This document shows, piece by piece, positions 8,341 to 43,216 of a stretch of 64,000 nt of DNA. Position 1 is the first letter of the stretch. The number at the start of each line of letters is the position of its first letter. Position numbers and translations under genes: made by a program. Source of the stretch: an uncultured Desulfobacteraceae bacterium (lineage in GTDB: Bacteria > Desulfobacterota > Desulfobacteria > Desulfobacterales > UBA5852); assembly GCA_942491115.1 (NCBI GenBank), contig CALNZV010000020.1:896524-960523 (forward strand), read 5' to 3'. The notes beneath the pieces are model-generated. The model ran no database searches. It saw only the letters and a program-made list of their open reading frames with translations, and was not told the DNA's origin.

Positions 8341-9717
8341 TCAGCGGGTGACCTCGTGGCCTGCACTCATCCAGGCCTTCATGCCGCCAGCCAGGCTGTG
8401 GACGTGGGAGAAACCCATTCCTTCCAGGAAACTGGCGGCGATGTTGCCCCGGTAGCCGATACCGCACATAGCAATGATCTCCTCGTTCTTGGGAAAGTCC
8501 GGGGGATCTTTCAGAAGCGCTGTCAGCGGCACATGCATCGCCCCCTCGACGTGGCCCATCTGCCATTCGGCAGGCGTGCGGACATCGATGAGGAGCCGAT
8601 GGTTGCCGGCAAGTTTTTCTTTCAAGGTCTCCGCTGAGATCTGCCACAGATGCCGAATGGGGTAGCCGGCTTCCTGCCAGGCGGCGATACCCCCGTAAAG
8701 ATATCCGGAGATATTGTCGTATCCGATCCGGTGGAGGTGGGTGCACATGGCGTTGTAGGCCGTTTCATCGGAGACCACGAGAATCAGTTCGGCGGTCGGA
8801 TCGATCACCATGCCGATCCAGTTGGCGGTCTGCTTGGCCAGCCCGATGTTGATGCTGCCGGGGATGTGCACACCCCCGAAAGCAGCCGTGTCCCGGGCAT
8901 CCAGAACCGTAGCGCCAGCATCGATTCGCGCCTTCACCTGGTCCGGCGAGAGGTCTCGACTGACAGGGCAGCGCTCCAGCAGGGGTGCTCCTTGCTTGTT
9001 GGTCTCGATGATGTGGGTAAAGCTCTTTGGCCGTTCGGGGAAGCTGGCGGAAAAAACGCTCTTGAAAGCACTTTCCTCCATATCCAGAACAGGATTGTTG
9101 CGCTTCTCAAAGCCGATGGTTGAGCTGGACTTGGCACTCATCCCCTTGCCGCAGAGAGAGCCCTCGCCGTGGGCCGGGAAGACCTCGACGCTTTCCGGCA
9201 GCTGACCTAGCTTCCCGTAGAGGGACCGGTACAGGTTGTCCACCTGTTCGCCGATCAGCTCTTCTCCCGCCAAGTCCGGCCGGCCCACATCACCGACGAA
9301 CAGGCAGTCCCCGGTCAGCACCAGCCAGGGTTCCTCACCCCGGGATCGATCGGTGACCAGAATGGACATGGCATGGGGGGTGTGTCCCGGGGTGTTTAGG
9401 ATCTCGAGCTTGGCATTGCCGAACTCGAAGATGTCCCCCTCTCTCACGGCCACGTGGTCGAAGGTGACGGGAGACCCCTCGAAGAAGTGAATCTTGGCCC
9501 TTGTCCGGGACTTTAGCTCCATATTTCCGCTGACGTGGTCCGCATGGACATGGGTCTCAAACACATGGGTGATTGTCATGTCGTTTTTCCGGGCAAGCTC
9601 GATATAATCCTGAACATCCCTCTTGGGGTCCACCACACAGGCCACCTTTGCAACCGGGCAGCCGATCAGGTACGAGAGACACCCCATTCCCTCCACGGCG
9701 ATCTGTTTGAAATACAT
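8341..9717 (-). CDS. MBL-fold persulfide-dioxygenase-like domain fused to two rhodanese domains (CstB-like architecture)
   Basis: 458 aa. The metallo-beta-lactamase motif is THVHADHVSG. The C-terminal rhodanese repeats end in the active-site loop CGIGYRGN. Confidence 0.85.
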   Translation of the reverse strand: MYFKQIAVEGMGCLSYLIGCPVAKVACVVDPKRDVQDYIELARKNDMTITHVFETHVHADHVSGNMELKSRTRAKIHFFEGSPVTFDHVAVREGDIFEFGNAKLEILNTPGHTPHAMSILVTDRSRGEEPWLVLTGDCLFVGDVGRPDLAGEELIGEQVDNLYRSLYGKLGQLPESVEVFPAHGEGSLCGKGMSAKSSSTIGFEKRNNPVLDMEESAFKSVFSASFPERPKSFTHIIETNKQGAPLLERCPVSRDLSPDQVKARIDAGATVLDARDTAAFGGVHIPGSINIGLAKQTANWIGMVIDPTAELILVVSDETAYNAMCTHLHRIGYDNISGYLYGGIAAWQEAGYPIRHLWQISAETLKEKLAGNHRLLIDVRTPAEWQMGHVEGAMHVPLTALLKDPPDFPKNEEIIAMCGIGYRGNIAASFLEGMGFSHVHSLAGGMKAWMSAGHEVTR

Positions 9718-10169: not shown

Positions 10170-11373
10170 ATGAAAATATTGATGATTTCAGATGTCTACT
10201 TCCCGAGGGTCAATGGGGTATCCACCTCCATAGGGACCTTCCGGAAAGATCTCTTCTCTCTGGGCCATGAAGTGCTTCTCGTGGTCCCCTCTTACGGGCC
10301 CAAGGATAGGGCCGAAGACCGTGTGCTACGGATACCGTCCCGGTACCTGCCGATAGCCCCTGAGGACCGGATCATGAAGAGCGGGAGGGGTGGCTTCTCT
10401 CACCGATCATTTTAGACGGCAGGCCTTCGATCTGATTCATATTCAAACACCGTTTATCGCCCATTACGCCGGCATCCGTCTGTCCAATCGTCTGGGAATC
10501 CCGAGGGTCGAGACCTATTACACCTACTTCGAAGAATACCTTGACCACTATCTGCCGTTGATACCCCCTGCCCTCATGCGAAGCATCGCCCGGTGGTTTT
10601 GCAACCACGTTGATGCCGTCATTGCTCCCTCCCGCGCCATGAAGGACGCGCTCAGGGGCTATGGCGTATACATCCCGATTCACATCATCCCGACGGGAAG
10701 CGAAGACATCTTCCTCAACCCGAGGGAACAATCCGGCTACAGACGCCGGAAAGGGATTCATCCGGATAGACCCGTCTTGTTGACCGTGGGCAGAGTGGCC
10801 TATGAAAAGAACATTGATTTTCTGCTGGACGTGCTGGCGGGGGTGCGCCGTTCGATTCCGGAGGTACTGTTCGTCATCGCCGGGGCAGGTCCGGCCCTGC
10901 CCGGCCTTAAAAACTGGGCCCGCCGGCTCGGAATCGACGACCATATCCCTTTTGTCGGGTATCTGGACCGAGAGACCTCTCTGCTGGACCTATATGGCGC
11001 CGGCGATCTTTTTGTCTTCGCCTCCCGAACCGAAACCCAAGGGTTGGTATTCCTGGAGGCGATGGCCATGGGAGTGCCGGTGGTCTCCACGGCGGTGATG
11101 GGTACAAAGGATATTCTTCGGCGTGCAATAGGAGCGATAGTGGCGGAAGAACATGCGGGGAAGTTCGCCTCGGAGGTGGTCAAGGTTCTTCAAGACCCGA
11201 AGATGCGGAACCGCTTAGGGGAAGAGGCGATAACATACGCCCGCTCAAGGTCGTCGGGGGAGATGGCAGCCAGAATGTCATCCTTGTACGAATCGGTTAT
11301 CGAAAAGGGTGACGGTCGTTTCCGAAAAGGATGGAAGTCCCCCGTGAGAAAGGGCCCAGGGGGCTGTTATTGA
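10170..11373 (+). pseudogene. GT4 (group 1) glycosyltransferase interrupted by a +1 frameshift near 10381-10392
   Basis: ORF 10170-10415 (MKILMISDVYFPRVNGVSTSI...PEDRIMKSGR) carries the GT4 N-terminus. ORF 10390-11373 in the next frame continues with ...FDLIHIQTPFIAHYAG... through the C-terminal Rossmann domain (ETQGLVFLEAMAMGVPVV). The junction lies at the G-run agcGGGAGGGGtgg. Confidence 0.75.
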
Positions 11374-11439
11374 CCCCCTCTTCAAAGAGAGCCGCACATG
11401 GCGGAATCGGAAATCAGTGTTGTCACCAGGGACGCCGGG

Positions 11440-11712
11440 TCAGGCGGCCTTGCAAAGGTGCTTTTTGGAGGAGACGCCGATAAATACCCGTCGAATGATC
11501 CCTTTGTGACGCTGTATATCGAAATAAATGCCGTTGTGGCTGACCACCGCCATGGAAAATTTCTGAATCATCCGAGAGGTCAGGTGATTTGCTGTGCACC
11601 ACTCCATGAACTGAGTGAAAAGCTCATTGACCGGTTCGACAGCACCCTCCACGACGCAGCACTTTTCCTGAAGAAAACGGCTCACCTGATCCTGGTATTC
11701 TTTGTCGTCCAT
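11440..11712 (-). CDS. Hypothetical protein resembling the C-terminal ~90 aa of P4-family phage/plasmid primases (orphan fragment)
   Basis: MDDKEYQDQVSRFLQEKCCVVEGAVEPVNELFTQFMEWCTANHLTSRMIQKFSMAV...RRVFIGV follows the pattern FL.E.C...v..LY..Y..WC...s...F...L....R...GI seen at primase C-termini. GC looks lower (roughly 50% by eye) than in the neighbouring genes. Confidence 0.45.
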   Translation of the reverse strand: MDDKEYQDQVSRFLQEKCCVVEGAVEPVNELFTQFMEWCTANHLTSRMIQKFSMAVVSHNGIYFDIQRHKGIIRRVFIGVSSKKHLCKAA

Positions 11713-11913
11713 TTTTACCAATCCATGCTTAGGAGCAAAAGAAGGCTGCAATGCAGGACGAAATCCGTTGCGTTGCGGACTGCGGTCGCAGATATCAATT
11801 GCCATTTCCCACATAAACAGGGGACGCCGGATCAATAGGGAGACCCCATTGTCCCGGCCTGCGATAGGGTACCGGATTTCCGGTTTCCGGTCTTATCATA
11901 TGGAACCATGGTA

Positions 11914-11946
11914 GGCATCCCCCGGACAAATGCAACGGGGGATGCC
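11914..11946. repeat. Perfect 11-bp inverted repeat / stem-loop
   Basis: GGCATCCCCCG-11 nt-CGGGGGATGCC in the gap between the rhodanese gene and the primase-fragment ORF. No flanking U/T tract. Confidence 0.5.
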
Positions 11947-12031
11947 CCCCAACGATCCATTGCCCCCGCCGCTAATACCGAGCCGGCGAGGGGGGACCCC
12001 TTGGTGGCCCCTCGGCTGGAATCGGCATTGG

Positions 12032-12460
12032 TTATTTTTCTTCCACCGGATATTTGGCTCTGAACCATTCCCGCCATCCTCCCTTCAGAGCAAAAACGTC
12101 CGTAAACCCATTGTCCATCAGCTTGCGTGCCAGACCGGCACTGGTTTTCTCGTCCGGTCAGGCGCAATAAAGGACAAGGGTTTGGTCTTTCGAATAGCTG
12201 TCTTTCCAATCGTCGACGGTTTTCGGATTTGCCTGCACGGCACCTTTGATCTTGAACTCGGAAGCCTTCCAGTCCTTTCCGATTCGGACATCGAGGATGG
12301 CCACATCGGGATTGCCGATGAGAGGCTTGAGTTCCTCTTTGGTCATCAGGGCGACGGTCGTATCCGCGACGGCCGTGGTCCATCCCAGTCCAAGAACGAC
12401 CACAGCGGCGGCCGCCGAAGCAATCCAGCATTTCCAGTTGAATGGAACAAGTAAGGTCAT
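12032..12460 (-). CDS. Rhodanese-domain sulfurtransferase, secreted or membrane-anchored; predicted selenoprotein (in-frame UGA at 12158-12160)
   Basis: The start ATG at 12460 has a strong RBS (GGGAGG). The ORF track stops at ...TLVLYCA-TGA. The same frame continues for 41 more codons, PDEKTSAGLARKLMDNGFTDVFALKGGWREWFRAKYPVEEK-TAA, which is the conserved C-terminal half of a rhodanese domain. The UGA lies two residues after the catalytic Cys, and a stem-loop follows it. Confidence 0.65.
12130..12160 (-). other. Candidate bacterial SECIS element
   Basis: The mRNA reads UGACCGGACGAGAAAACCAGUGCCGGUCUGG. A GACCGG/CCGGUC 6-bp stem includes part of the UGA. Alternatively, a CCAG/CUGG stem with loop UGCCGGU lies ~17 nt after the UGA. 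Confidence 0.45.
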
Positions 12461-12485: not shown

Positions 12486-13802
12486 TTAAGACCCCCGGCG
12501 AAGGCGTCCTCCACTCGCCCAGAATCCACAGAAAACGAGAATAAAAACGGCAACCACCGCCGATGTCATTAATTCGATTATTGCCACTTTGTCCGGATCC
12601 CCGGCGACGAGCAGCACCGCGCCGATCGCAAACGCTATGGCAGCCCCGGCCCTGGACCACGGACTGGATAGAAGGAAGAGCACCGACGGCCTCCCGGCGA
12701 TTCGCCGCCGCCCACCTCGAAGGGCGGCCAGGTTGACCGCTCCGTAATGGATCAGAACCAGTGTCAGGCCGGCCCTCAGGGCCGTATCGACCGCTTCGGT
12801 GCCCGCTGCACCGACGGCCATCATGATCCCGATGGCAACCGCCAAAGCCAGGGGGGGCATAGCCCGCCAGAGGGCATCCGCACCCGGCGCTGCGGTCGGA
12901 CGCTCCCTGGCGATCAGATAGCGACAGATCTCGGACAGGGACATAAACAGACCGTTGACCGCGGCGCAAACTCCGGTGATGGCAACGACACCAATCGTCA
13001 CTCTGCCGGATTGACCCCAGATGGACTTCGCTACAAGGATGTGCCCAATGGTCGATCCGACCAACCGATCGGCCGCCACCGCCCCCACGGTGACCCAGGT
13101 CCAGACGCCGATCAGGACGCCGGAACCGATAAGGCCTGTCATCAGATATCGAAAATACAGCCCGGAGGCTTCAGGTCCTCGGCCGGCGTTCAGGAATAGC
13201 CACTCGACCCCGACGAACACCCAGAGCAGTGCCAGGGGAACCCCCTCGTCAGGCTTCGGCAATGGGATGGTTGTGGGGCCGCCGGATTCCCATCCCCACA
13301 GACCGACGACCACCAGCAACCCCAGGCCAAGTGCCGCCGTCCCCGAAAAAACCACCTGAAATCCTTCGACCCAAGGTTTTCCGGCCAGGTGAATGGCCAA
13401 GATGACCCCCAGCAGAAGATAGGCAAATCCAAAATTGGGAAACCAGTAAACGAACACCTCGTTAAAGACGAAGCCGGCCGTTACCAAGAGCCCCGTGGCT
13501 CCTGCTAGGGCAACGACGATTCTGCCGCACAGGGGCATGGCCGCTCCCGCCAGGTTCCCGAAGACCATGCCTAACCGGTCGACCTCCATGGCCGGACCGG
13601 TGGCGGACTGGGCTGCCAGATCCCGGTAGGAAGACCCCGTGATGCCGTAAATCCAGAGGACGACCCCCAACCACGGAACCAGTCCCATGCCCCTGCTGCC
13701 GGCCTCGTCGGCCAGGAGGGCCAAACTGAATGGGGAGATGACGAATCCTGCCAGCCAGGCAATGGCGATCCATCTTTCTGCATGGGCCGATCGGTTCGTC
13801 AT
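12486..13802 (-). CDS. Polytopic membrane transporter (APC-superfamily-like permease)
   Basis: ~438 aa from ATG at 13802 (RBS GGAAGGA) with ~12 hydrophobic segments. It lies immediately upstream of, and in the same orientation as, the rhodanese gene. The family assignment is tentative. Confidence 0.65.
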   Translation of the reverse strand: MTNRSAHAERWIAIAWLAGFVISPFSLALLADEAGSRGMGLVPWLGVVLWIYGITGSSYRDLAAQSATGPAMEVDRLGMVFGNLAGAAMPLCGRIVVALAGATGLLVTAGFVFNEVFVYWFPNFGFAYLLLGVILAIHLAGKPWVEGFQVVFSGTAALGLGLLVVVGLWGWESGGPTTIPLPKPDEGVPLALLWVFVGVEWLFLNAGRGPEASGLYFRYLMTGLIGSGVLIGVWTWVTVGAVAADRLVGSTIGHILVAKSIWGQSGRVTIGVVAITGVCAAVNGLFMSLSEICRYLIARERPTAAPGADALWRAMPPLALAVAIGIMMAVGAAGTEAVDTALRAGLTLVLIHYGAVNLAALRGGRRRIAGRPSVLFLLSSPWSRAGAAIAFAIGAVLLVAGDPDKVAIIELMTSAVVAVFILVFCGFWASGGRLRRGS

Positions 13803-14138
13803 TGATTTTCCTTCCGGTTCCTGGTTCCTCCCGTAACCCTGTCTGCGCGGGTGTACCGCGTGACGGGTCGGCTGATCCGTCGGCTGCGGTGTCGCACAAA
13901 CCACCGGCTTAAATCAGGAGCGTTCCACTCCTTAAGGGGCTGCGGGGGTTCTGTTTATTCCGACTTTTTTGACACTGAGGCCGTCAGCACCCAAAAGACG
14001 AAGGGGATCGTCTTGTATTTGTGGACCGTTTTCGTTAGGAACGGGGCATTGTCCGCGTCCGCACCGGATAGGGATTGATCCCCTGCCGGACGCCGCCGGT
14101 CGTCATCTGCCCAATCCTTGGAAGCTAGGGAGGTCCCT

Positions 14139-15092
14139 GTGGCTGCCGCCGCCCCCAAGAAAGTCATCATCGCCGCCCTCATCGGCAACCTTTTGATTGC
14201 CATCACCAAATTTATCGCCGCAATCATTACCGGAAGCTCTGCCATGTTTTCCGAAGGAATCCACTCCGTCGTGGATACCGGGAATCAGGTCCTTCTTCTC
14301 TATGGACTTCACCGGGCAAAAAAGCCCCCTGATGACCAATTCCCCTTCGGTCACGGCAAGGAAGTCTATTTTTGGAGTTTTGTTGTGGCCATCCTTATTT
14401 TTGCCGTCGGGTCCGGGTTTTCCATTTACGAGGGCATCCATCGAGTGCTCGACCCCCATCCCATCGAGCGTCCGCTGATCAGCTACGCCGTGCTCGTTCT
14501 CGCAATGATTTTCGAAGGGGCCGCCTGGTATTTCGCCTGGACGGAATTTACGAAAACCAAGGGGAAATGGGGCTATATTGAGGCGGTTCAACGGGGGAAA
14601 GATCCCAGCATGTTCGTGGTCTTGTTTGAAGATTCCGCCGCCATGATCGGCCTTGGAGTCGCTTTCTCCGGAATCGCCCTCAGCCAGGCGACGGGCATCC
14701 TATGGTTCGACGGTGCGGCCTCCATCGTCATCGGCCTCATCCTGGCCGGCACCGCCGTTTGGCTGGCTTACGAAACCAAGGGTCTCCTGATCGGTGAAAG
14801 CGCCAACATGGCCGTGGTGGAGGATATCCGTCGGATTGCGAACTCCTACGAGGAAATCCGTCGGGTCCATGAGGTGCTGACCATGCATATGGGGCCGGAT
14901 TTCATCCTGGTAAACATCTCTGTCAAGTTCAGGGGTGAAGTAAGAGCTTCCGCCATTGAAGCCGCCATCACCAGGCTTGATGGGGATCTAAAAAAAGGCT
15001 TCCCGGCGATCAAGCGGGTATTCGTTGAGGCTGAAGGGCTGAAGCAGGACCCTGTGGACACCCCGCCGGCCGATGACAGCCTCCAACGCTAG
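14139..15092 (+). CDS. Cation diffusion facilitator (CDF) family metal efflux transporter
   Basis: CDF motifs are ALIGNLLIAITKFIAAIITGSSAMFSEGIHSVVD and a C-terminal cytoplasmic domain. GTG at 14139 has GGGAGG 6 nt upstream. The ORF track opens at TTG 14118. Confidence 0.85.
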   Translation: MAAAAPKKVIIAALIGNLLIAITKFIAAIITGSSAMFSEGIHSVVDTGNQVLLLYGLHRAKKPPDDQFPFGHGKEVYFWSFVVAILIFAVGSGFSIYEGIHRVLDPHPIERPLISYAVLVLAMIFEGAAWYFAWTEFTKTKGKWGYIEAVQRGKDPSMFVVLFEDSAAMIGLGVAFSGIALSQATGILWFDGAASIVIGLILAGTAVWLAYETKGLLIGESANMAVVEDIRRIANSYEEIRRVHEVLTMHMGPDFILVNISVKFRGEVRASAIEAAITRLDGDLKKGFPAIKRVFVEAEGLKQDPVDTPPADDSLQR

Positions 15093-25900: not shown

Positions 25901-27166
25901 CTACACTCCTCTGAAAACCAGACAGCAGTTGGTCCCCCCGAAACCGAAAGCGTTGGTCAGCACCGTCTCGTGGGGATGGCGGCGGGAATGGTTCGGGACC
26001 ACATCCACATCGGCCAAGGCCGGGTCCGGAATATGGTTGATCGTCGGCAGCAACAGCCCCTGTTGCATACCCTCGATGGCCAGGACCGCTTCGACCGCCG
26101 CCGCCGCACCGAGGGAATGACCCAGCTGGGATTTGTTGGAAGATACCGGCAGCCGCGCCAGAAGGGGACCGAACACCGTCCGCAGGCTTTCGATTTCAAC
26201 CAGGTCCCCCTTGCTGGTGGATGTGCCGTGGGCGTTGACATAGTGGATGTCAGCGGGGGAGAGGCCGGCATCGTCGATGGCTTCGTGAATGGCTCGAACC
26301 ACCGTCGTTTGATTGGGCCGCGTAAAGTGATGGGCATCCGAGGTCCAGCCGACACCGAGGACCTCCGCTTTGGGGGACAACCCCGACGATTGCATCACCT
26401 CTTCGGCGGCCAGAACCAGCACGCCTCCTCCCTCCGCCAGCACGAACCCCTTCCGGTCGATACTGAAGGGCCTTGAGGCCTGGCCCGGATCCCCATGGGC
26501 CCGGTCATTGGAGCCCACCTTGATGGTTGCCCACATATTGGCAAACCCCTGGATAATTTCAGGGACAAGGCACATTTCCACCCCGCCGGCGAGGGCAAAG
26601 TCACAGTCCCCGTCGCGAATCATTCGGGCGCCCAAGGCAATGGCATGATTCCCGGAAGCACAGGCACCCTGGGGGGAAAAGATGGGGCCGGTAAATCCCA
26701 GCATCATACTGGCCTTTCCGGCCGGCACGTTGGCGCAGAGATTGGGCAGGAGATAGGGGCTGATCTTTGTGGGCCCATGGCGGGTGTAGTTTTCCATGGC
26801 CACTCGGTAAGCGTCGGTACCGTTGAGGGCGGAGCCGACCAAGCAGGCGGTTCTGGGACCGGCGTCCCCGTCGATGACCAGGCGGGCATGACTCAGGGCC
26901 CGTTTGCAGAGGACCATGGTCAGGTGGACGAAGCTCGCCTCCCAGTTACCGGCATCCCGCCCGCCGATCCCGTCGATGGCGCGCGGATCCCAATCCGGGA
27001 TTTCCCCAACCACATTGCTCCGTGTGTCCACCCGACAGCGGGTAAGGGTCCTGAATCCGCTCTCGCCCCGCACCGCCCGCTCCCAGGTCCGCTCCAAATC
27101 GTTACCAAGGGCGGTGGCGACATCGTAGCCGACAACGAAAACCCGTCTATTGAGAGGTGCTTTCAT
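25901..27166 (-). CDS. Beta-ketoacyl-ACP synthase (KS), catalytically complete
   Basis: Active-site Cys (GACASGNHAI), His (NAHGTSTSKGD) and His (LGHSLGAAAA). ATG at 27166 (MKAPLNRRVFVVG...). Confidence 0.9.
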   Translation of the reverse strand: MKAPLNRRVFVVGYDVATALGNDLERTWERAVRGESGFRTLTRCRVDTRSNVVGEIPDWDPRAIDGIGGRDAGNWEASFVHLTMVLCKRALSHARLVIDGDAGPRTACLVGSALNGTDAYRVAMENYTRHGPTKISPYLLPNLCANVPAGKASMMLGFTGPIFSPQGACASGNHAIALGARMIRDGDCDFALAGGVEMCLVPEIIQGFANMWATIKVGSNDRAHGDPGQASRPFSIDRKGFVLAEGGGVLVLAAEEVMQSSGLSPKAEVLGVGWTSDAHHFTRPNQTTVVRAIHEAIDDAGLSPADIHYVNAHGTSTSKGDLVEIESLRTVFGPLLARLPVSSNKSQLGHSLGAAAAVEAVLAIEGMQQGLLLPTINHIPDPALADVDVVPNHSRRHPHETVLTNAFGFGGTNCCLVFRGV

Positions 27167-27182
27167 GGTTCCACCAGGGGGC

Positions 27183-28433
27183 TCAGCCCCATCTCCGAAA
27201 AACGATGCATGCGTTGCAGCCTCCGAAACCAAAGGCGTTTTTGAGCACATATTCCTGTTGGACACTCCGGCTGCCTTCGGCCACACAGTCGATGTCAAGT
27301 TCCGGGTCGGGCCTGTGGTTGATCGTCGGCGGCAGCCGCTGATCCTCGAGTCCCCGAAGGGCAAAAATGGCTTCGATGGCGCTGGAAGCCCCCATGGCAT
27401 GGCCGGTCAGGGATTTGTTGGCGGTTACCGGCGGCAGTTGCCCACTGAAAACCGCTTTCAAGGCCTCCACCTCCACCTTGTCGCCGACCCGGGTCGACGT
27501 GGCATGGGCGTTGATCGCATCGATGCGATCGGGGCCGACACCCGCATCGGATATGGCCTCGGCAATGCATCGAGTAACGGTTTCCGGATAGGGCGAGACA
27601 AAGTGGTGGGCGTCCGAGGTCATGGACCATCCGGCAACCCCACAAGAATAGGGCAATCCGTGGGTGTTGGCGAACTCCGGCGTGGCGATGACGATGCATC
27701 CGGCCCCTTCTGAAATCACGAACCCCCTGCGGCCGGCGGAAAAGGGGCGACTGGCCCGCTCCGGAGGCTCAGGCGGAGCGCCTTCTTTAGGGACGTAGGC
27801 CCCGTTCATCGTCGCAAACCCGGCAACGATGGGTTCGACGAGGGCCATGTCCACCGCACCGCAGATGGCCACGTCCGCTCGGCCCAGAGCCAGCAGCATG
27901 GTACCGACGATGACCGAAGTGACCCCCGTTGCGCAAGCGGTGATGGTGGCGCTGATGGGCCCCCTTGCTCCCGTCCACATGGACACGACGCCCCCGACCA
28001 TGTTAATGCAGGCATTGGGGTTGGACCACGGCATGGGAAGCCGTCCCTCGGCGATCCACCGCCGGTCCGCCGCCAATAAGGCGTCCACTCCCCCCACAGC
28101 GGAACTGTAGGTCACCGCCACGCGGGGAGCTATTTCCGGCGTGATGATCAGGCCGCTTCTCTCCAGGGCGCGGTGAACGGTCAGAAGTGCAACCTTGAAA
28201 ATCGGTGACGGCCACCTTGCCTGCTCTCTTGCCGACAGAAACGGATAGGGCAAATGGTCGATGGCGTCGATCTCTCCGGCGATTTGCACCGGAAAATCCC
28301 TGTCGGTTGGGAACCGTGTCAGGAGGCCGACGCCGCTCCGGCCCTCGAGGGCCCGTTGCCATTGGTCCTCGAGCTCTATTCCCAAAGGAGATACGGCGTC
28401 GTAACCGATAATGACGGGGGCATTGGTTTTCAT
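27183..28433 (-). CDS. Beta-ketoacyl-ACP synthase (KS), catalytically complete
   Basis: Active-site Cys (TACATGVTS), His (NAHATSTRVGD) and His (TGHAMGASSA). It sits in tandem with the preceding KS. Confidence 0.9.
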   Translation of the reverse strand: MKTNAPVIIGYDAVSPLGIELEDQWQRALEGRSGVGLLTRFPTDRDFPVQIAGEIDAIDHLPYPFLSAREQARWPSPIFKVALLTVHRALERSGLIITPEIAPRVAVTYSSAVGGVDALLAADRRWIAEGRLPMPWSNPNACINMVGGVVSMWTGARGPISATITACATGVTSVIVGTMLLALGRADVAICGAVDMALVEPIVAGFATMNGAYVPKEGAPPEPPERASRPFSAGRRGFVISEGAGCIVIATPEFANTHGLPYSCGVAGWSMTSDAHHFVSPYPETVTRCIAEAISDAGVGPDRIDAINAHATSTRVGDKVEVEALKAVFSGQLPPVTANKSLTGHAMGASSAIEAIFALRGLEDQRLPPTINHRPDPELDIDCVAEGSRSVQQEYVLKNAFGFGGCNACIVFRRWG

Positions 28434-28456
28434 GTCAGTCGGCGGCGTCGGATGGG

Positions 28457-29455
28457 CTACCAGGGAATGAACTGGTAGAGTTTGGCAAACATCTCATAGA
28501 TTTCGATCCAGTTTTGAAGATCCCGGGAGCTTCTCATGTGGGCCCGCTTGTTCACCATCACCCAGCTCATATGGGCCGCTCCGTCCTTGCAGGTCGTGCA
28601 GTCCCGGGTTTCGGAGGTGCAGCATCGGTGCATGGTGTCGAGATCGGAGGCCCACCGGATGAAATTGGTCAGCCGTTTGGGTTTAGGGGATCGATCGTCG
28701 AGGGGGTCGGAAACCGAGGGGCATTCCATCCAGCCAAACCGCCGATCCAGCATTTTCCCGGTGGTGATGATTTCATGGTAATACTTGGAGGAGATGACGG
28801 TATCGGGGTAGGCCTCCAGCATCTCATCCATTTCATCACGGATGGCCGACAGTTCCCCTGTTGTCCAACTGAATCCGTCGACCCCTTCGTCGTTGGACAG
28901 CAGCTGCATGTGCACCTTGAGGCCCGCATCTCGAATTTTTCGAATAACGTTCTCGGTTTTGCCGATCTGTTTAGGGGTAATGGTAAAGAGATAATAGGTG
29001 TGTGGGTCCCCTTCGTAGTTCTTGCTGGAGACGGCAAACGTGTCTTTCCCCCGAAGGGTCGTTTCGTCCGCCTCGTCGCCCCAGAGGGAAATGCCGATCA
29101 TCATGTCGGGAAACCGGTCCCTGGGAACCTTGATCAACCCGTTGGTAGCGCAGAAAGTGGGCAGCCGCCGGTAGAATGCCTCCACCCGGTCAAGGCAGAG
29201 GGTCGGCTCGCCGCCAATAAGAATGGCCAGATTGACCCCTCGCCCCATCTCCTTGTCGACGAATGCTTCCCATTGACGGAGGTCGGTTTCCTCGGGGGCG
29301 GCCTCGTGCTCGCCGGATGAAAAGAAGAAGCACCCCTTGCAGCGCAGATTGCAGCGGTTGGTGACGTCGTAGATCGAGCTTCTGATGTTAAGCTTGGAGA
29401 TGCGCTTGTAGCGTTCGTACCAGTGTGCGTCCAGAAGGGAACTGACGGTTTTCAT
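28457..29455 (-). CDS. Radical SAM protein (paralog B of a tandem pair), C-terminal CC-x6-DC-xx-C motif
   Basis: CNLRCKGC (CxxxCxxC) at ~aa 35 and a C-terminal RCCTSETRDCTTC. AGGAG RBS, ATG at 29455. Confidence 0.85.
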   Translation of the reverse strand: MKTVSSLLDAHWYERYKRISKLNIRSSIYDVTNRCNLRCKGCFFFSSGEHEAAPEETDLRQWEAFVDKEMGRGVNLAILIGGEPTLCLDRVEAFYRRLPTFCATNGLIKVPRDRFPDMMIGISLWGDEADETTLRGKDTFAVSSKNYEGDPHTYYLFTITPKQIGKTENVIRKIRDAGLKVHMQLLSNDEGVDGFSWTTGELSAIRDEMDEMLEAYPDTVISSKYYHEIITTGKMLDRRFGWMECPSVSDPLDDRSPKPKRLTNFIRWASDLDTMHRCCTSETRDCTTCKDGAAHMSWVMVNKRAHMRSSRDLQNWIEIYEMFAKLYQFIPW

Positions 29456-29466
29456 CGGTGGCTCCT

Positions 29467-30591
29467 TCAGTCGGAGGGCAGCTCGAAGCCGGGAGGAGAT
29501 ATCGGGACGCTGCACAAGGGCGATCCCTTGATATAGGGCATCACCCATACAGCCAGATAATTGTCCACATAGTCAAGCCAAGAGCGGAAGGTGGCCGGGT
29601 CGACGGCATGGCGGAACAGCCGTGCCGTCACGATCGCGCTTCCGGCGGCATAGTGGCGGCAGTCATGGCAGTCGGTGTCCGGAACGCAGCAGGCGGCGTC
29701 CCGGTTCCAGGTCAGATTTGCCCGATACTGGCGGAAGGACCGGCTCAACCCGATGGTGGCGGACGGCTGGCGACGGGGATAGGGGCATCCGAACAGGCTG
29801 TGAAGCCCCATGGGATGCGTATGGACGACGGCATTGTATCGGGAGAACAAGACATGGTCGGGGAACGCCGCCAGCAGACGGTCCATCGTCTTCCGGGTGT
29901 TGGCGAGGGAGGCGTCGGTATGCCCGAGATCACCCCTGTAGCCGACCGGGGCCGAAAACATGTTGAAAGTCACCCGGCAATCTTCTTGAGCCAGACGGCC
30001 GACGACCTCCTCGGATTCGGAAATGTTGTACCGGGTAAAGGTGTAGACGAACACGGCACGGGAATCCCCCCGGTAGTTGTCGATCTGTCGATCCAGCATG
30101 TGCTTTGCGTTTCGGACCCGGAGGCTGGTCCGGTCATTGCCCCATACGGATAGGTGAATTCGGTAGCCGATGTCGTCCGGAAACCGCTTCAGTCCGTTGG
30201 TGGCGATGGCGCCCAAAGGAATAGCGTCGTAACAGACACGGCACCGGTCGATGGCAAGGGAGGGCTCCGCCCCGGCAAGCACCACGAATGTGACGCCCCG
30301 TGCTTTCTCCGCGGCCATGAGGGCTCGCCAATCGCCGATGGCCTCGTTGTCGGTGACGAGCTGCTTTTCGCCTTCGTAATAGTAGCATCCGTCGCATCGG
30401 ATGTTGCACCGGGACGTCATGTCGTAAGTGGACTCCCGAAGAAAAAAATAGCGACGAACCTTTTCCCACCGGTTTTTCACCTCGGGAGCTGAAATGAGAT
30501 CGCTGAATTTGCAGGGCGGATCCACTTGGTTGCCAGCTGATTGCCGAAAGGGTTGAGGTGCCGTGGTCACGATCGCTTCCGTTCCCCGCAT
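29467..30591 (-). CDS. Radical SAM protein (paralog A of a tandem pair), C-terminal CC-x5-DC-xx-C motif
   Basis: CNIRCDGC motif and a C-terminal ACCVPDTDCHDC. It can be aligned by eye with the downstream paralog over its whole length (STYDMTSRCNIRCDGCYYY vs SIYDVTNRCNLRCKGCFFF, ATNGL, WG, NY.GD). Confidence 0.85.
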   Translation of the reverse strand: MRGTEAIVTTAPQPFRQSAGNQVDPPCKFSDLISAPEVKNRWEKVRRYFFLRESTYDMTSRCNIRCDGCYYYEGEKQLVTDNEAIGDWRALMAAEKARGVTFVVLAGAEPSLAIDRCRVCYDAIPLGAIATNGLKRFPDDIGYRIHLSVWGNDRTSLRVRNAKHMLDRQIDNYRGDSRAVFVYTFTRYNISESEEVVGRLAQEDCRVTFNMFSAPVGYRGDLGHTDASLANTRKTMDRLLAAFPDHVLFSRYNAVVHTHPMGLHSLFGCPYPRRQPSATIGLSRSFRQYRANLTWNRDAACCVPDTDCHDCRHYAAGSAIVTARLFRHAVDPATFRSWLDYVDNYLAVWVMPYIKGSPLCSVPISPPGFELPSD

Positions 30592-30592
30592 G

Positions 30593-30853
30593 TCACGCCG
30601 CCAGCTTCTGCTGCAGATATTCCGCTATCAGGCGAACGGTTGTCAGTTTGGGGTAATCGTCTTCGTCAATCCTGACACTGTAGTCATCCCTGAGAACCAG
30701 GGCAACCGTTGCCAGATCCATGCTGTCGATCCCCACCTCGTCGACGAGGTCGATATCCGGATCGAAAGTTTCGGGGGTGACATCTTCAAGTTTCAATTCA
30801 TTGATCATGATTTCTGCCACGCGCAGAATGGTTTGGTCCAGATCTGTCGACAT
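30593..30853 (-). CDS. Acyl carrier protein
   Basis: 86 aa, acidic, with phosphopantetheine Ser motif GIDSMDLATV. Confidence 0.88.
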   Translation of the reverse strand: MSTDLDQTILRVAEIMINELKLEDVTPETFDPDIDLVDEVGIDSMDLATVALVLRDDYSVRIDEDDYPKLTTVRLIAEYLQQKLAA

Positions 30854-30920
30854 CGTTGTTTCCGTCTCCTTGGGTGTGCACCGATGGTCACATTCGGTGC
30901 GGGCGGTTGGGCATCAACCG

Positions 30921-31328
30921 TCAAGGCACCGGCCGTTCGAGTTCCATGATGCCCGAGCAGCAAAGCTCCCCCCGGCTGAATAGTTTAAAGGAATAGGCTT
31001 GCCCACTCTCGTCGATGGGCAAGGCCTCGATGGATAGGGTATCGTCCGGGTGTATGGCCAGCTTGAATCGAACCCTTCGCAGTCGGGATACCCGGGCAGT
31101 ATTGCCAGTGTGACGCCCCAGCATCTCCTCGACCAGGCACAGTTGAGCGACACCGGGCAGAATCGGCTCTTGTGGGAAATGGCCGTCGAACCAGACCGCA
31201 TCTTCCGGTATCTTCCTTTCGGATCGAATCGGCTCCGGGGACAAGGGGCGGGGCGGTCGTGGTGGTTCCAAAGCCATATTGCTCCATGTGTCGACGGCTG
31301 GCAGCGGGCCCTGAACTGGGGGTCTCAT
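30921..31328 (-). CDS. FabA/FabZ-type 3-hydroxyacyl-ACP dehydratase (ApeI-like hotdog)
   Basis: Motif FDGHFPQEPILPGV (catalytic His). It starts 4 nt after the B12-rSAM stop. Confidence 0.8.
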   Translation of the reverse strand: MRPPVQGPLPAVDTWSNMALEPPRPPRPLSPEPIRSERKIPEDAVWFDGHFPQEPILPGVAQLCLVEEMLGRHTGNTARVSRLRRVRFKLAIHPDDTLSIEALPIDESGQAYSFKLFSRGELCCSGIMELERPVP

Positions 31329-31331
31329 CTG

Positions 31332-32681
31332 CTAGCACCTAAGCATTTCCCAAAGAGGGCCTTTATACCCTTTTTCATAGAGTCGAAGCAAGGTCCGGGC
31401 CGTCTCCTGCCCACCGGATCCGATCACCCAGTTCGGCCGGTCTTTCCCTGCAGCCTCCAGCTGCCGGTGAATCGCCCGGCTGTCGACGAACGGGGAGCGG
31501 TAGAACACCGGCGACAGAAGATCCTGATCGACCGTCACCTGCCCTTCTTTTAGGGCCCGGTCATAGAGTGCGGTATTGGGATAAATCCTCATACCGCAGA
31601 AAAAAAACAGCACACAGTTCCTCAACCCCTGAGCGGTCTCCAGGGTGTCGTCGAGAGTCTCCTGGGTTTCTCCCGGTCCTCCGAGTAGCAGGTAGTGGGC
31701 CACATGGAGACGGGACGCCAGCGCGGACCGATGGGCGTCCAGGGCCTCCTGCCGACGAAAAGGCTTCCCGTAGGCTTCCAGAACCGGGTTGCAGAACGAC
31801 TCGGTCCCGAATTCCACATGGGTCAGGCCAGCGCTCCTCAGCCTTTCGAAATACCGGTCGGGCATCCGGTTCGGAATAAAAAAGGCTCCCCAGGGAATGG
31901 AAAGCCCTGATTTACGGAAGTGTTCTGCAACCGATAGGCTGTGATCGATATCGGCGTTGAAGGCGGAATCGGTGATGAACAGATAGGCGGCCCCCGCCCG
32001 CTGAAGAGCCATGGCCGTATCGGCCACCTCTTCGGGGTCGATGAGCCGCAGCCGACGTCCTTCGATGTGGGGGTAGGTGCAGTAGATGCAGCGAAAACAG
32101 CACCCTCTGTGGGTCTGGAGGTTCAGCATCCCCCCCTTGTTGAGGTAGAAACCCAAATGGGCCGTTTCCGGATCGAACCGACGGTGAAAGGAACGGGTCA
32201 GGGGACGGGGGACATCGACCCCTTCCGAAGCCACCATGACCCCGGTCAGCAGTCGGGGATCCTCACCCTTTTCCAGGGCGTCGACCAGACGGACCAAGCG
32301 CTCTCCTTCCCCCACAATGCCGTAGTCGGCTCCCAGCGCCCCCATCATCTGGGATGGGAAAATGGTAAAGCCGCTGCCACCGAGTACGATCGGAGCCCCA
32401 CTGGCAGCTTTGAGCTCACCGATCATCTTCCGGTAGCCGTCCATGAATCCTTTGGGGTCCTGGGCCTCGGTGTTGTCCACATTCCGGATCGACACACCGA
32501 TCAGGCCGGGATCAAACCCCCGCACCTGGCCACTGAGATCCGCCATGGACGACAGGGTATTCACGTCCATGATCCGGACCTCGTGGCGGTCTCCTATGGC
32601 CCCGGCGACATAATCCAACCCCAGGGGATAGACCGGATAGGGGTCGATGGAAGTGTTTGCGGAAACCAGCAGTATTCTCAT
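31332..32681 (-). CDS. Cobalamin-binding-domain (class B) radical SAM protein
   Basis: The N-terminus MRILLVSANT...PLGLDYVAG is a Rossmann-like B12-binding-type domain, followed by HRGCCFRCIYC (CxxxCxxC). Its ATG overlaps the KS-CLF stop (ATGA). Confidence 0.85.
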   Translation of the reverse strand: MRILLVSANTSIDPYPVYPLGLDYVAGAIGDRHEVRIMDVNTLSSMADLSGQVRGFDPGLIGVSIRNVDNTEAQDPKGFMDGYRKMIGELKAASGAPIVLGGSGFTIFPSQMMGALGADYGIVGEGERLVRLVDALEKGEDPRLLTGVMVASEGVDVPRPLTRSFHRRFDPETAHLGFYLNKGGMLNLQTHRGCCFRCIYCTYPHIEGRRLRLIDPEEVADTAMALQRAGAAYLFITDSAFNADIDHSLSVAEHFRKSGLSIPWGAFFIPNRMPDRYFERLRSAGLTHVEFGTESFCNPVLEAYGKPFRRQEALDAHRSALASRLHVAHYLLLGGPGETQETLDDTLETAQGLRNCVLFFFCGMRIYPNTALYDRALKEGQVTVDQDLLSPVFYRSPFVDSRAIHRQLEAAGKDRPNWVIGSGGQETARTLLRLYEKGYKGPLWEMLRC

Positions 32682-34843
32682 GGGGGAGACACCACGACGG
32701 CAGAGACGACCTGCCCCAGTCCGAGCACGAGAATCGATCCACTGACGGCATTGATTCCAAGCCGAGGCGGCCGGGGTCGGAACGATCGCCGTTTGTCCAC
32801 CAGGGATGCCGCCAATACCGTGGCCACGGCGGATGCGGCGGCATAGTTCCCGGTCAGTTCACGATAGTCGATCCGGTGGTCGCTGTAGCCGGTCAAACGG
32901 GAAAACGCCTTCAGTTGATTCTGGGCGCTGTCGGTTTCTGCCGCCGGGATTCCCGCCAGCAGGAGGCCGAACCGGTTCTTGACCCCTGTCCGCCCTCCCA
33001 GACGCTTCACCAGCTCGTCCACAGAAGGGGGTCCGTCCAGGCCGATCTCGATGTGGACGGTCTCGACCGTCGGGGCCCCGGGGATCGCCTCCCGGGTCAG
33101 TACCAGAGCCCCACCGCCATCCGACGGATCCCCATCGGCGGATACCGACGAGTCGAATAGGGGCGAGAGAACCGGATGGCCTTCGTCGGCGCCGACCACC
33201 AGAACCGCCCCTGCGTCGGGAGCCAACAGCTCGGCGGATAAGAGGGCCTGCTCAAAGGAGTCGTTGCCGCCGGTGAGAGTCAAATTGACCCCCTTCGCAC
33301 CGGTCATCATGGCCACCTGGCCAGCAGGCGCATTGTGCACGGAACCGATAAAATCCGTTGGGCTGGCAAACTGTTCGCCGCTCTCGAAAAGGGCGGTAAG
33401 AAAATCGTGGGTCTCCGACAGCGATCCCCAAGCCGTTCCGGCGAATACCGCTTCGATCGGACCTGGGAAATCGGTGTGTTTGATGGCTTCAGCAGCCAGT
33501 ACCATGGTCATCAGAGATAGCCGTTTGACACGGCGAATGGCTGGGCTTGGCATCATCCTGCCCACCTCAGCGGCCGGGTATCGTCCCCGGCAGGATTTCC
33601 GGAGCCGGATCCGATCAAGGGTTTCAAGGGTCATACCGGCCCCGGTAATGGCAGACCACCCCGCTACCCGAAGCCGACCGTCGTCAGGGGTGTCGATTTT
33701 CCGCCGGTCCGGGTTACTGCGACCAACCACCACGGCCCCGTTGTTTCCTCCGAAACCGAATGCGTTGACGAGGATCTTTTCCGGTCGGATCCGAAGCGGC
33801 GCCGCCAAGGGCTCGACGCCAAGGGCCGGGTCCGGCACCCGGCAGCCGCTGTTGGCGGGGATCACCCCCCGGTCGATGGATAGAGCCGCCATCACCGTTC
33901 CGATGGCACCGGCGGCGGCAAGGCTGTGCCCCGTCGCCCCCTTGACCGAAGAAAACGGAGGCATTCTGTCACCGAAAAGAGAACGCACGGCACCCATCTC
34001 TATGCGGTCGTTGTCGATAGTGCCGGTGCCATGGAGATGAATGGCATCGATGTCCCCGGCCTCAAGACCCGCCCGGTCCAAGGCCAGCCGCATCGCAGAC
34101 AGAGCCCCTTCACCCTCCGGATGGGGTAGGGTCGGATGGAAGGCATCGCAGCTTAAGCCGGCACCCATCAATTCGATCCGATCACAGGCCGCTTCGGAGG
34201 CCTCAAGCAGGCACATGGCCGCCCCTTCCGCCACCGAGAGGCCTCGGCGATCCGCATCCAGCGGCCTGGCACCCAACGGATCGATCAGTTTCAGAGATCT
34301 AAACCCATAGTAGGTCAGGCGGCACAGGGAGTCCACACCTCCGACAAGCACTCGCTTGGCCCGACCGGCTCTCAACAACGCCAGGGCCAGAGCCAGGGCC
34401 GACACCCCGGAGGAGCAGGCTGTGGTTACCGTCAATACCGGTCCGCGGCAGCGGTAGCGCCGGGCCAGGGCGACCGCCACCGTACCCAGCCCGTGCTGGC
34501 TGAAATCGCCGGCGACGCCGTCGCCGAAACGCAGACGGTCCTCGGTCATGTCCATGCCGCCGGTAGTGCTTCCAACGACGATGACATCAGGGGGCTGCAG
34601 GGGGTGCCCCATGGCTTGGTCCGACGCCTGTATGGCCAACTGATGCGCCACCGGCATTCCTGGCTTCAAAAGACCCGGAGGAGCCTCGCCCACTATTAGG
34701 GGGCGATGGGAGGCGGGTTTGAACCGTGTCAGCGGGGCCAATCCGCTTCGACCCAAGGTCAGCGCCTTGACGGTGTCTTCCAGGCCGCAGCCGAGAGCCG
34801 AAACGATGCCCATACCACGAATATAAACGGGAAGAACGGTCAC
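32678..34843 (-). CDS. Fused beta-ketoacyl synthase + chain-length-factor-like domain (KS-CLF)
   Basis: The N-terminal half is a complete KS (TACSSGVSA, HGTGTIDND, GHSLAAAGA, FGFGGNN). The C-terminal half (about 32681-33690) is KS-like without the Cys (TGGNDSFEQAL) and has SVHNAPAG, typical of ApeC-type CLF. GTG start overlaps the ACP stop. Confidence 0.85.
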   Translation of the reverse strand: MTVLPVYIRGMGIVSALGCGLEDTVKALTLGRSGLAPLTRFKPASHRPLIVGEAPPGLLKPGMPVAHQLAIQASDQAMGHPLQPPDVIVVGSTTGGMDMTEDRLRFGDGVAGDFSQHGLGTVAVALARRYRCRGPVLTVTTACSSGVSALALALALLRAGRAKRVLVGGVDSLCRLTYYGFRSLKLIDPLGARPLDADRRGLSVAEGAAMCLLEASEAACDRIELMGAGLSCDAFHPTLPHPEGEGALSAMRLALDRAGLEAGDIDAIHLHGTGTIDNDRIEMGAVRSLFGDRMPPFSSVKGATGHSLAAAGAIGTVMAALSIDRGVIPANSGCRVPDPALGVEPLAAPLRIRPEKILVNAFGFGGNNGAVVVGRSNPDRRKIDTPDDGRLRVAGWSAITGAGMTLETLDRIRLRKSCRGRYPAAEVGRMMPSPAIRRVKRLSLMTMVLAAEAIKHTDFPGPIEAVFAGTAWGSLSETHDFLTALFESGEQFASPTDFIGSVHNAPAGQVAMMTGAKGVNLTLTGGNDSFEQALLSAELLAPDAGAVLVVGADEGHPVLSPLFDSSVSADGDPSDGGGALVLTREAIPGAPTVETVHIEIGLDGPPSVDELVKRLGGRTGVKNRFGLLLAGIPAAETDSAQNQLKAFSRLTGYSDHRIDYRELTGNYAAASAVATVLAASLVDKRRSFRPRPPRLGINAVSGSILVLGLGQVVSAVVVSPP

Positions 34844-35121
34844 GAGGGAAGCGGGGCCGATGAATTCTTGATGCAGCCGGCCATGGTTCGAAGGGATGCA
34901 AACACCTCGGCGCCCCGCTCTTTGCTGTCGATGACGATTCCGTAGTCTTTTTCCATCATCATCACCAGTTCCAGAACGTCGATGGAATCAATGCCAAGCC
35001 GCCCGCCCACCAAAGGCTCGTCCGGATCGATGCCGTTCGGATCGACAGTGGCAAGATTCAGCAGTTCGACGATTTTTAGTTTCAGCTGGTCTATCAGATC
35101 GTCCATGGCTATCCTGTCCAC
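34840..35121 (-). CDS. Acyl carrier protein
   Basis: 93 aa with Ser motif GIDSIDVLELV. It is the first gene of the minus-strand core operon. Confidence 0.85.
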   Translation of the reverse strand: MDRIAMDDLIDQLKLKIVELLNLATVDPNGIDPDEPLVGGRLGIDSIDVLELVMMMEKDYGIVIDSKERGAEVFASLRTMAGCIKNSSAPLPS

Positions 35122-35260
35122 ACCGGCAACCCCGTGGATCAGAGGCTGACGGCGAAGGCGTCTCGGATGGTTTACAGCCGAGGTCGCCTGTAGTATGGGT
35201 TTGTTAAAGCTATGAACTTTAGCATGACAGAGACAAAGTGCAATCCATCAATTCCCCTTT
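35122..35260. promoter_or_regulatory. Divergent promoter region of the two core operons (inferred)
   Basis: 140-bp gap between divergently transcribed ACP and dehydratase genes, with a local AT-rich patch (tagtatgggtttgttaaagctatgaactttagc). Confidence 0.3.
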
Positions 35261-35716
35261 TTGGAAAAAACCGGTTCCATAGTGACGGATCGAGACCATC
35301 CACCCGATCTGGAAGACCTTCTTCCCCACCGAGGGCCCATGCTTCTGATCGACGATATCCTGGCCGTCGACAGAAACCACGCCGTATCCCAAGCAAGGGT
35401 CAGGGATCGATGGCCGGGATTCGACGGATCGACAGTCAGTCCTCTGCTGATCATCGAATTGGTGGCCCAGACCTCCGGACTCAGCAACGGTCTGGATCGA
35501 ATGCTGACGGAAGGGCCCGCTGCCGACAAGAGGGGGTGGATTGTCGGCGTCAAAGAGGCGCGCTTCTCTGCCGATCGGCTGATCCCGGGGACCCTGATCA
35601 TTACCGAAGCCTCCAACAGTTTCAAATTCGAGGGGTTTAGAGAAATCAGAGGCACCTCCAGAATCGGTACCGATATCATCGGAGAGGTCGTGCTTCAAGT
35701 CATGCGCTCGGGGTAG
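35261..35716 (+). CDS. 3-hydroxyacyl-ACP dehydratase, ApeP-like hotdog
   Basis: N-terminal motif LLPHRGPMLLIDDI. TTG start at 35261, with GTG at 35282 as an alternative. Confidence 0.75.
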   Translation: MEKTGSIVTDRDHPPDLEDLLPHRGPMLLIDDILAVDRNHAVSQARVRDRWPGFDGSTVSPLLIIELVAQTSGLSNGLDRMLTEGPAADKRGWIVGVKEARFSADRLIPGTLIITEASNSFKFEGFREIRGTSRIGTDIIGEVVLQVMRSG

Positions 35717-35815
35717 GGCCCGAGACCGGGTATGATGGGCTCGGCGTTGTCATGACCCTAACCCCATCGGAGGGCCCCGGAAACGGCCCCCCGCCATCAC
35801 CATCGGATTCCGCTT

Positions 35816-36559
35816 ATGGTCATGGAAGCCTTCACAGATCCCCCCATCGCCCTGGTAACAGGGGCCAGCAAAGGTATCGGCCGGGCCGTCAGTGTCGAGC
35901 TGGCCCGCAGCGGGTACACGGTGGCCGTCAATTACCGTGCCGATGAAGCGGGCGCTCTCGAGACCGTCTCCCTGGTCACGGCACAGGGTGCCCGGGGACA
36001 GGCCGTCGGCTTTGATGTTACCGACCGCCGCGCCGCCACTGACGCCATTTCCACGATTCTCTCGGAGGTCGGCCCCATCGACGTTCTGATCAATAACGCC
36101 GGCATCACCTCGGACGGCCTTTTTGTCATGATGTCCAAGGAGAGCTGGGACCGGGTGATCCGCACCAGTCTGGACGGTTTTTATCATTGTACGAAGCCTG
36201 TTATCGAATCCATGATCCGTCGGAAGCATGGCAGCATCGTCTCCATAGCCTCGGTGGCCGGTCTGGTGGCCAATCGGGGGCAGTCCAACTACTCAGCCGC
36301 CAAGGCGGGGGTCATTGCGGCCAGCCGCTGCCTGGCCGCAGAGGTGGGTCGACTCGGTATCCGGGTAAACGTGGTGGCGCCGGGACTGATCGATACGGAC
36401 ATGATCAAAGACGCGCCGGTGCCTCACATCAAATCCATGATCCCGATGGCCCGTATCGGCCGGCCGGAGGAGGTGGCACGGGTGGTACGCTTTCTGTGCT
36501 CCGAAGATGCCTCCTATGTCACCGGTCAGGTCATCGGTGTTAATGGCGGCATGGCCTGA
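35816..36559 (+). CDS. fabG: 3-oxoacyl-ACP reductase (SDR, FabG-type ketoreductase)
   Basis: TGASKGIGRA cofactor motif, catalytic NYSAAKAG (YxxxK), 247 aa. Confidence 0.9.
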   Translation: MVMEAFTDPPIALVTGASKGIGRAVSVELARSGYTVAVNYRADEAGALETVSLVTAQGARGQAVGFDVTDRRAATDAISTILSEVGPIDVLINNAGITSDGLFVMMSKESWDRVIRTSLDGFYHCTKPVIESMIRRKHGSIVSIASVAGLVANRGQSNYSAAKAGVIAASRCLAAEVGRLGIRVNVVAPGLIDTDMIKDAPVPHIKSMIPMARIGRPEEVARVVRFLCSEDASYVTGQVIGVNGGMA

Positions 36560-36591
36560 ACCCCCATGCGAGGATTCCTGACAGACGCCGA

Positions 36592-37886: not shown

Positions 37887-37933
37887 TCCAACAAACCGGA
37901 CTCCCCATCCGGCGTGAATAGGAAGACCACCCA

Positions 37934-40707: not shown

Positions 40708-40766
40708 GGTACCTCACTAACCCGACGCCGCCAAATAACTGCTTTCAATGGCGGAGGCGGTGGGGG

Positions 40767-42808: not shown

Positions 42809-42856
42809 CAAACGGCCCTTTCGCCCATCCATTGGAAAACGCCGGCGATTCGGATC

Positions 42857-43120: not shown

Positions 43121-43216
43121 TACCCTCGACCCTTTGGAACAGCGTTGAATGAAAAGCGGTATCATACAACAATTCCCGATTAACGGCAAAAGCCCCCCCT
43201 TCGAACCACCATACTT

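Follow-up and report, generated by a model that had tools for sequence, protein, structure and literature searches.

This locus raises the question of whether an in-frame TGA ends a short rhodanese gene or is read as selenocysteine (Sec) within a longer one. We addressed it in the window, the whole 64-kb stretch of DNA. On the minus strand a reading frame opens with an ATG at 12460, runs for 100 codons (ending in ...KDQTLVLYCA) and reaches a TGA at 12160-12158, which is codon 101. Beyond the TGA the same frame stays open for exactly 41 codons, PDEKTSAGLARKLMDNGFTDVFALKGGWREWFRAKYPVEEK, and closes with a TAA at 12034-12032. This translation coincides exactly with that of the initial annotation of the locus, which had described an ORF ending ...KDQTLVLYCA-TGA with 41 further codons to a TAA. 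The features of the gene are the following.

12032..12460, minus strand: putative complete selenoprotein coding sequence, 142 codons including UGA-101, plus the TAA
12465..12471, minus strand: Shine-Dalgarno sequence GGGAGGA, read from the sequence, 4 nt 5' of the ATG
12365..12460, minus strand: predicted Sec-type signal peptide, residues 1-32, cleavage between AVA and D, read from the sequence
12164..12166, minus strand: Cys99 codon TGC, at the predicted canonical rhodanese catalytic position, invariant in the CxU form
12158..12160, minus strand: in-frame UGA, codon 101, position 3 of the loop C-A-U-P-D-E, TGA in 79 of 80 loci

By our own rough estimate, the chance of finding 41 open codons after a stop is about 0.2 at 59% GC, so the open stretch alone is weak evidence and the case for read-through was built on homology. 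Against the Pfam Rhodanese model (PF00581), the 100-residue ORF aligns with model positions 1-69 of 102 at 26 bits, which is two thirds of the domain, while the 142-residue read-through product aligns with positions 1-101 of 102 at 49.9 bits (E 4.6e-13). The extension thus supplies the part of the rhodanese fold that the shorter ORF lacks, as had been claimed from the sequence.

The read-through product, scored with U written as C, also matches the NCBIfam model NF041203 over positions 6-126 of 126 with 179.6 bits (E 1.7e-53); NF041203 is an equivalog model with a curated cut-off of 115 bits. Judged by this profile match, the product is an ordinary member of the family, which is named "rhodanese_LYCAU, rhodanese-related (seleno)protein". 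The motif that gives the family its name is present in the window as ...LVLYCA-TGA-PDE and in 79 of 80 related loci (the best 80 of 586), two of which carry it as LY-TGA-A-TGA. The window member shares with NF041203 the LVLYCA-U motif, the CxU pattern, a single rhodanese domain and a deltaproteobacterial host range, and no difference from the family was detected in it.

The LYCAU selenoprotein family is already known, by computational prediction. It was first predicted in 2005 by Zhang and Gladyshev with bSECISearch and is listed, as 'predicted', in PMC9312934 and PMC13188914; the initial annotation, too, had placed a rhodanese-related family in computational selenoproteome surveys. PMC1976440 ranks it third in abundance among the selenoprotein families of the Olavius delta symbionts and finds it abundant in delta-1, and members from Olavius symbionts are also among our related loci (L010 and L020). 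We found no biochemical study of any family member. As the family has been catalogued before, a further member adds little.

A protein search returned 628 homologs, and the site was tallied in the best 120. Among these, 104 end at ...YCA, eight have W at the site, two C, one Q and five S, with P0012 assigned to the S group by eye; the database copy of the window protein itself (P0001) has 100 residues. For two of the homologs listed with W the DNA was fetched, and both proved to be TGA translated with another genetic code, so we rejected these entries as true Trp forms, as far as the two that were checked. That ORF callers truncate the gene had been supposed for this locus, and it holds well beyond it: gene callers and public collections mis-annotate LYCAU rhodaneses systematically, as 104 of the best 120 of 628 homologs are cut at the UGA and eight carry a spurious Trp.

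We therefore turn to the DNA. A genome scan with one genome per species confirmed 586 relatives, and the best 80 loci were taken for analysis. The aligned codon is TGA in 79 of these 80 and TGT, for Cys, in one. Within the 78 loci of the CxU pattern, TGA is found in 77, and the single TGT belongs to L008 (Desulfatitalea). The remaining two loci of the best 80 have a UxU form, TGA-GCN-TGA (L052:6256-6264 and L061:3856-3864), in which a second TGA replaces the codon for Cys99. A UxU form was noted earlier in Olavius symbionts (PMC1976440). No TGG was found at the site among the 80 genome loci (best 80 of 586). Cysteine homologs with the sequence YCACPNEATS also occur in the protein collections (P0002 and P0010), and together with the TGT of L008 they are the Cys-containing counterparts that had been named for this loop. 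The nearest relative of the window gene, L004, is 77% identical and has the TGA and the same arrangement. Desulfosarcina alkanivorans PL12 and Desulfacinum infernum DSM 9756 are also among the carriers of the gene (L051 and L077).

In all 80 loci (best 80 of 586) the 41 residues after the TGA are conserved, while their codons vary. The invariant Gly at +17 uses all four of its codons and the Leu at +24 uses five. Residues that stay fixed while the codons vary imply translation past the TGA, and this shows that selection at the level of the protein acts on the 41 codons that follow. The comparison with homologs that the initial annotation had suggested thus places Sec or Cys at the UGA (79 TGA and one TGT in the best 80 of 586) and finds conservation downstream of it.

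The TGA could instead be a true stop, in which case the gene would be a 100-residue truncated fragment or a pseudogene and the downstream frame a leftover. Gene callers agree with this, both for P0001 and for the 104 of the best 120 homologs that end at YCA, TGA is the commonest stop in the window, and no Sec machinery was seen there. The TGA, however, occupies this same position in 79 of 80 species and is followed by 41 conserved residues with synonymous variation, a product of 100 residues would be without a third of the fold, and the conserved hairpin described below would be left without a role. We consider a true stop very improbable.

Other residues do occur at the site outside the 80 loci. 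It holds Gln (CAA) in L084:432-842 and Ser (TCA) in L085:3001-3402 and L086:757-1158; in these three the stem of the hairpin can still pair, and the loop G is gone in L085. This pattern suggests a SECIS element that is decaying after the loss of Sec. Genuine Ser and Gln forms imply that Sec or Cys at the site is dispensable in some lineages.

Selenocysteine insertion at the UGA would be directed by a structure in the mRNA, and the family alignment points to a single element.

12125..12144, minus strand: SECIS-like hairpin, +17 to +36, counting the U of the UGA as 1

Its core stem, GUGCC/GGCAC, pairs 12141-12137 with 12131-12127 around the loop GGUCU (12136-12132), and the core covers +20 to +34. 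When 81 sequences are aligned without gaps around the TGA, the family consensus is GUGCC-NGUNN-GGCAC. Among the 78 distinct sequences the core stem is 99.7% paired, and none of 500 shuffles reached a value as high. Both sides of a pair have changed in three alignment cells of the core (two U-A to C-G and one C-G to A-U), accompanied by five wobble changes, and RNAalifold predicts the same stem.

Codon usage gives a similar result. Codons +6 to +10 have a synonymous identity of 0.83-0.97, compared with 0.23-0.58 for the majority of degenerate codons elsewhere. Within the hairpin, Ser+6 uses only AGT or AGC, GCC encodes Ala+7 in 75 of 76 sequences and GCA encodes Ala+10 in 72 of 77, whereas Ala+23, outside the hairpin, uses its four codons freely. 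The second position of the loop is G in 81 of 81 sequences, and the residue encoded there (Gly, Ser, Arg or Trp) varies only among codons with G in the second position. These observations show that the hairpin from +17 to +36 is under RNA-level selection. A lower stem of CC/GG with a bulged A is formed in about half of the sequences, and in the window copy only one of its two pairs forms. The single-sequence minimum free energy fold of the region has z = -1.26, so its stability is not significant. In the two UxU loci (L052 and L061) both UGA codons would depend on one downstream hairpin.

The initial annotation had also pointed to a bacterial SECIS at this place, and in this it was partly right. 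A conserved SECIS-like hairpin exists and both stems it proposed can be drawn, but neither is conserved: GACCGG/CCGGUC, which lies within the single-sequence minimum free energy fold, is paired in 55.1% of cells and CCAG/CUGG in 78.5%. Across the family alignment, neither of these two stems has covariation above that of the shuffles. We rejected both as the SECIS in favour of GUGCC/GGCAC.

For comparison we used the SECIS of Escherichia coli fdhF, whose sequence was confirmed in 5,419 E. coli genomes and whose apical loop is GGUCU. The window element resembles it in being a hairpin within the coding sequence directly 3' of the UGA, in having the identical GGUCU loop with an exposed G-U, and in a lower stem of 2 bp set apart by one bulged base, A19 here and U17 in fdhF. 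The two differ in the place of the G-U, which is at +26/+27 here, one codon further from the UGA than the +23/+24 of fdhF, and in the stem sequence; the lower stem of the window copy is also weak, with one pair, and SelB binding is here a prediction. In fdhF numbering, the G-U of the loop is G23 and U24, and the bulged base is U17. From the alignment, the window hairpin offers a precise candidate SECIS for the entire family, which we regard as a modest new lead.

The hairpin also bears on a second alternative, in which the UGA is read through as a standard residue (Trp, Cys or Arg) by a near-cognate tRNA, a suppressor or a reassigned code. Several database homologs do show W, and again no Sec machinery was seen in the 64-kb window. 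Both W entries that were checked are nevertheless TGA, no TGG occurs in the 80 loci, and the sole sense codon there is TGT, for Cys, which is the usual counterpart of Sec. TGA is moreover the stop of 16 of the 27 confident genes in the window and the commonest stop among them, which indicates that the genome does not use code 4 or 25. In addition, the curated model describes a selenoprotein family, and the hairpin matches the SelB-binding fdhF SECIS in its position and its GGUCU loop. Read-through with a standard residue is thus highly unlikely, and the in-frame TGA is very probably a genuine selenocysteine codon.

The machinery for decoding Sec was searched for in the window. ARAGORN and Rfam found no tRNA-Sec, no other tRNA and no Rfam family in the 64 kb, and no selA, selB or selD was found among the 30 large ORFs of the window. 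Further selenoprotein genes were not found in the window either, where scans for TGA-interrupted frames gave only antisense frames and ordinary stops. We infer that the source organism decodes Sec because the element is intact, the pattern holds across the family and the relatives are of Desulfobacterales type. That this genome has instead lost Sec decoding and keeps the locus as a recent relic with a truncated product is extremely unlikely: mobile DNA is hinted at by a low-GC3 stretch and a weak P4-primase fragment beside the gene, and no Sec machinery was seen in the 64-kb window, but the frame, the perfect 5-bp stem with its GGUCU loop, the ribosome-binding site and the downstream codons are all intact, the closest relative (L004, described above) keeps the TGA and the arrangement, and among these relatives the one group whose selenoproteome was looked up, the Olavius delta symbionts, is selenoprotein-rich (PMC1976440).

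With the UGA read as Sec, the active-site loop becomes C99-A-U101-P-D-E. To place its residues in the rhodanese fold, we used an HMM profile alignment, in which the YC of the window falls on the YC of PDB 6mxv, and the AlphaFold model of a natural Cys homolog (P0002) in place of the window protein. The domain of the P0002 model has a pLDDT of 92-96 and superposes on many rhodanese domains at 1.7-2.2 Å. Its central strand ends at Tyr90, the loop reads C91-A-C93-P-N-E96 and a helix starts from residue 97. In both the alignment and the model the catalytic Cys position is the first of the six-residue loop that leads from the central strand to the helix. On the basis of the 6mxv alignment and the secondary structure of the P0002 model, Cys99 is predicted to be the canonical nucleophile and Sec101 to occupy the third position of the loop (CxU), in agreement with the earlier placement of Sec two residues past the catalytic Cys. 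The opposite assignment, with Sec as the canonical catalytic residue, was obtained when the alignment was anchored on the helix (TSAGLARKL against SSKGAAQYL of GlpE), and was rejected on the 6mxv alignment and the AlphaFold model.

The fold is that of the periplasmic single-domain rhodaneses Sud (Wolinella succinogenes, PDB 1qxn) and PspE (E. coli) and of the cytoplasmic GlpE (PDB 1gmx), with an rmsd of about 2-3 Å for GlpE and profile or fold matches for Sud, and in all of them the catalytic Cys is the first residue of the loop after the central strand. Those proteins have a single Cys and no Sec, and their loops are basic, whereas the loop here is acidic (P-D/N-E). Sud and PspE carry N-terminal export signals, as the window rhodanese seems to. 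In the window protein this signal is the hydrophobic leader listed above; similar N-terminal hydrophobic leaders are found in the homologs, and in the P0002 model this segment is placed outside the domain, with low confidence. The predicted signal peptide suggests that the rhodanese is exported, with a mature form of about 12 kDa. We know of no partner permease for Sud, PspE or GlpE.

A candidate partner of this kind is found at the present locus, in which the gene preceding the rhodanese is a putative transporter.

12486..13802, minus strand: 438-aa putative divergent APC-superfamily permease, ATG 13802 as the likely start, frame open back to GTG 13904

Its stop lies 25 nt before the rhodanese ATG, on the same strand. 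The window copy has no match in Pfam or NCBIfam. A search for its homologs found 30, some with PF13520, a domain that is present in 10 of the 24 aligned members. The profile of this family matches ApcT (PDB 3gi8) with E 1.1e-10, and also xCT and AdiC, so that at the profile level the upstream gene appears to be a divergent member of the APC transporters.

A tblastn search placed a homolog of the permease directly upstream in 60 of the 72 loci whose upstream DNA was long enough (best 80 of 586), with both genes on one strand. The pairing spans the Thermodesulfobacteriota and metagenome-assembled genomes labelled Anaerolineales, Dehalococcoidales and Entotheonellaceae. All-against-all clustering of the neighbouring ORFs of 78 loci revealed no other conserved neighbours, and this clustering also missed the permease. 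The simplest reading is that permease and rhodanese form a two-gene operon. Co-transcription of the rhodanese with the upstream permease, which had been inferred for this locus, fits the 25-nt gap, the common strand and the permease upstream in 60 of the 72 loci. The conserved APC-type partner is, at the level of gene order and profiles, a second modest lead.

For the role of such a pair there is an analogy, which implies no common membership. Thiosulfate uptake by YeeE/YeeD uses a membrane transporter and a small sulfur-carrier protein, and the present locus resembles it as an operon of a transporter and a small Cys-based sulfur handler, which may serve as a precedent. The families are unrelated, being YeeE/YedE with a TusA-like protein there and APC with a rhodanese here, and YeeD is cytoplasmic whereas the window rhodanese appears to be exported. 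A tentative possibility, to which we give less than even weight, is that the LYCAU rhodanese and the permease make up a dedicated module, in which a periplasmic sulfur or selenium species would be captured or activated and passed to or from the transporter. In the consulted portions of the literature we found no description of the rhodanese-permease pairing, and those that treat the LYCAU family make no mention of the upstream APC-type permease or of the leader peptide.

Divergent from the permease-rhodanese pair, a CDF-family cation efflux transporter is encoded at 14118-15092 (plus strand); this arrangement is kept in L004 and not in the other loci. On the other side of the pair, two inverted repeats follow the TAA.

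11987-12014, minus strand: inverted repeat with 12-nt arms, just 3' of the TAA
11900-11960, minus strand: inverted repeat with 25-nt arms, just 3' of the TAA

A canonical T-run is absent after these repeats (11900-12014), which probably mark the end of the transcript. The adjoining stretch, 11398-11838, has low GC3, weakly matches the C-terminal end of a P4-family primase (E 2.9e-4), is shared by L004 and may be what is left of a mobile element beside the rhodanese gene.

Further genes of the window were noted as separate observations. The minus strand encodes at 8341-9717, 2.3 kb from the selenoprotein gene, a protein of 458 residues with a metallo-beta-lactamase fold and two rhodanese domains, which is similar to PDB 3tp9 and resembles a persulfide-dioxygenase/rhodanese fusion; no synteny of this gene was found in the related loci. 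A GT4 glycosyltransferase appears to extend over two overlapping frames of the plus strand, 10170-10415 for the N-terminal 81 residues (MKILMISDVYFPRVNGVSTS...) and 10390-11373 for a further 327 residues, and this split is probably a frameshift, a pseudogene or a sequencing error. The region 25901-44101 contains three ketoacyl synthases, two B12-binding radical SAM proteins, an SDR reductase, small ACP-like ORFs and an LpxL-like acyltransferase, and looks like an unusual biosynthetic cluster of lipid or polyketide type.

Taken as a whole, we hold with high confidence that 12460-12032 (minus strand) is one gene, for a predicted exported single-domain rhodanese of 142 residues in which a UGA is used as Sec under the direction of the hairpin, and which has a permease as its probable partner. 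SelB and Sec-tRNA(Sec) would bind the hairpin, and selenocysteine would be inserted at the UGA. The rhodanese, presumably co-transcribed with the APC-type permease, probably works with it. In the loop of the exported protein, a catalytic Cys would be followed two residues on by a selenol. The first Cys can itself become Sec, as in the UxU form, and the second site also has genuine Ser and Gln forms; with these in view we propose that both residues take part in the chemistry, either as a selenenylsulfide redox couple or by a relay of sulfane sulfur or selenium between Cys and Sec. The pair probably accepts sulfane sulfur or selenium, or cycles through a Cys-S-Se-Sec bond, and would transfer or reduce sulfur or selenium species in the periplasm.

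For annotation, the consequence is one selenoprotein of 142 residues with Sec at codon 101, instead of a fragment of 100 residues. For the biology of these organisms, the LYCAU selenoprotein is widespread among sulfate reducers and related anaerobes, and its permease partner, its export signal and its CxU or UxU loop would provide handles for a first functional experiment on the family.
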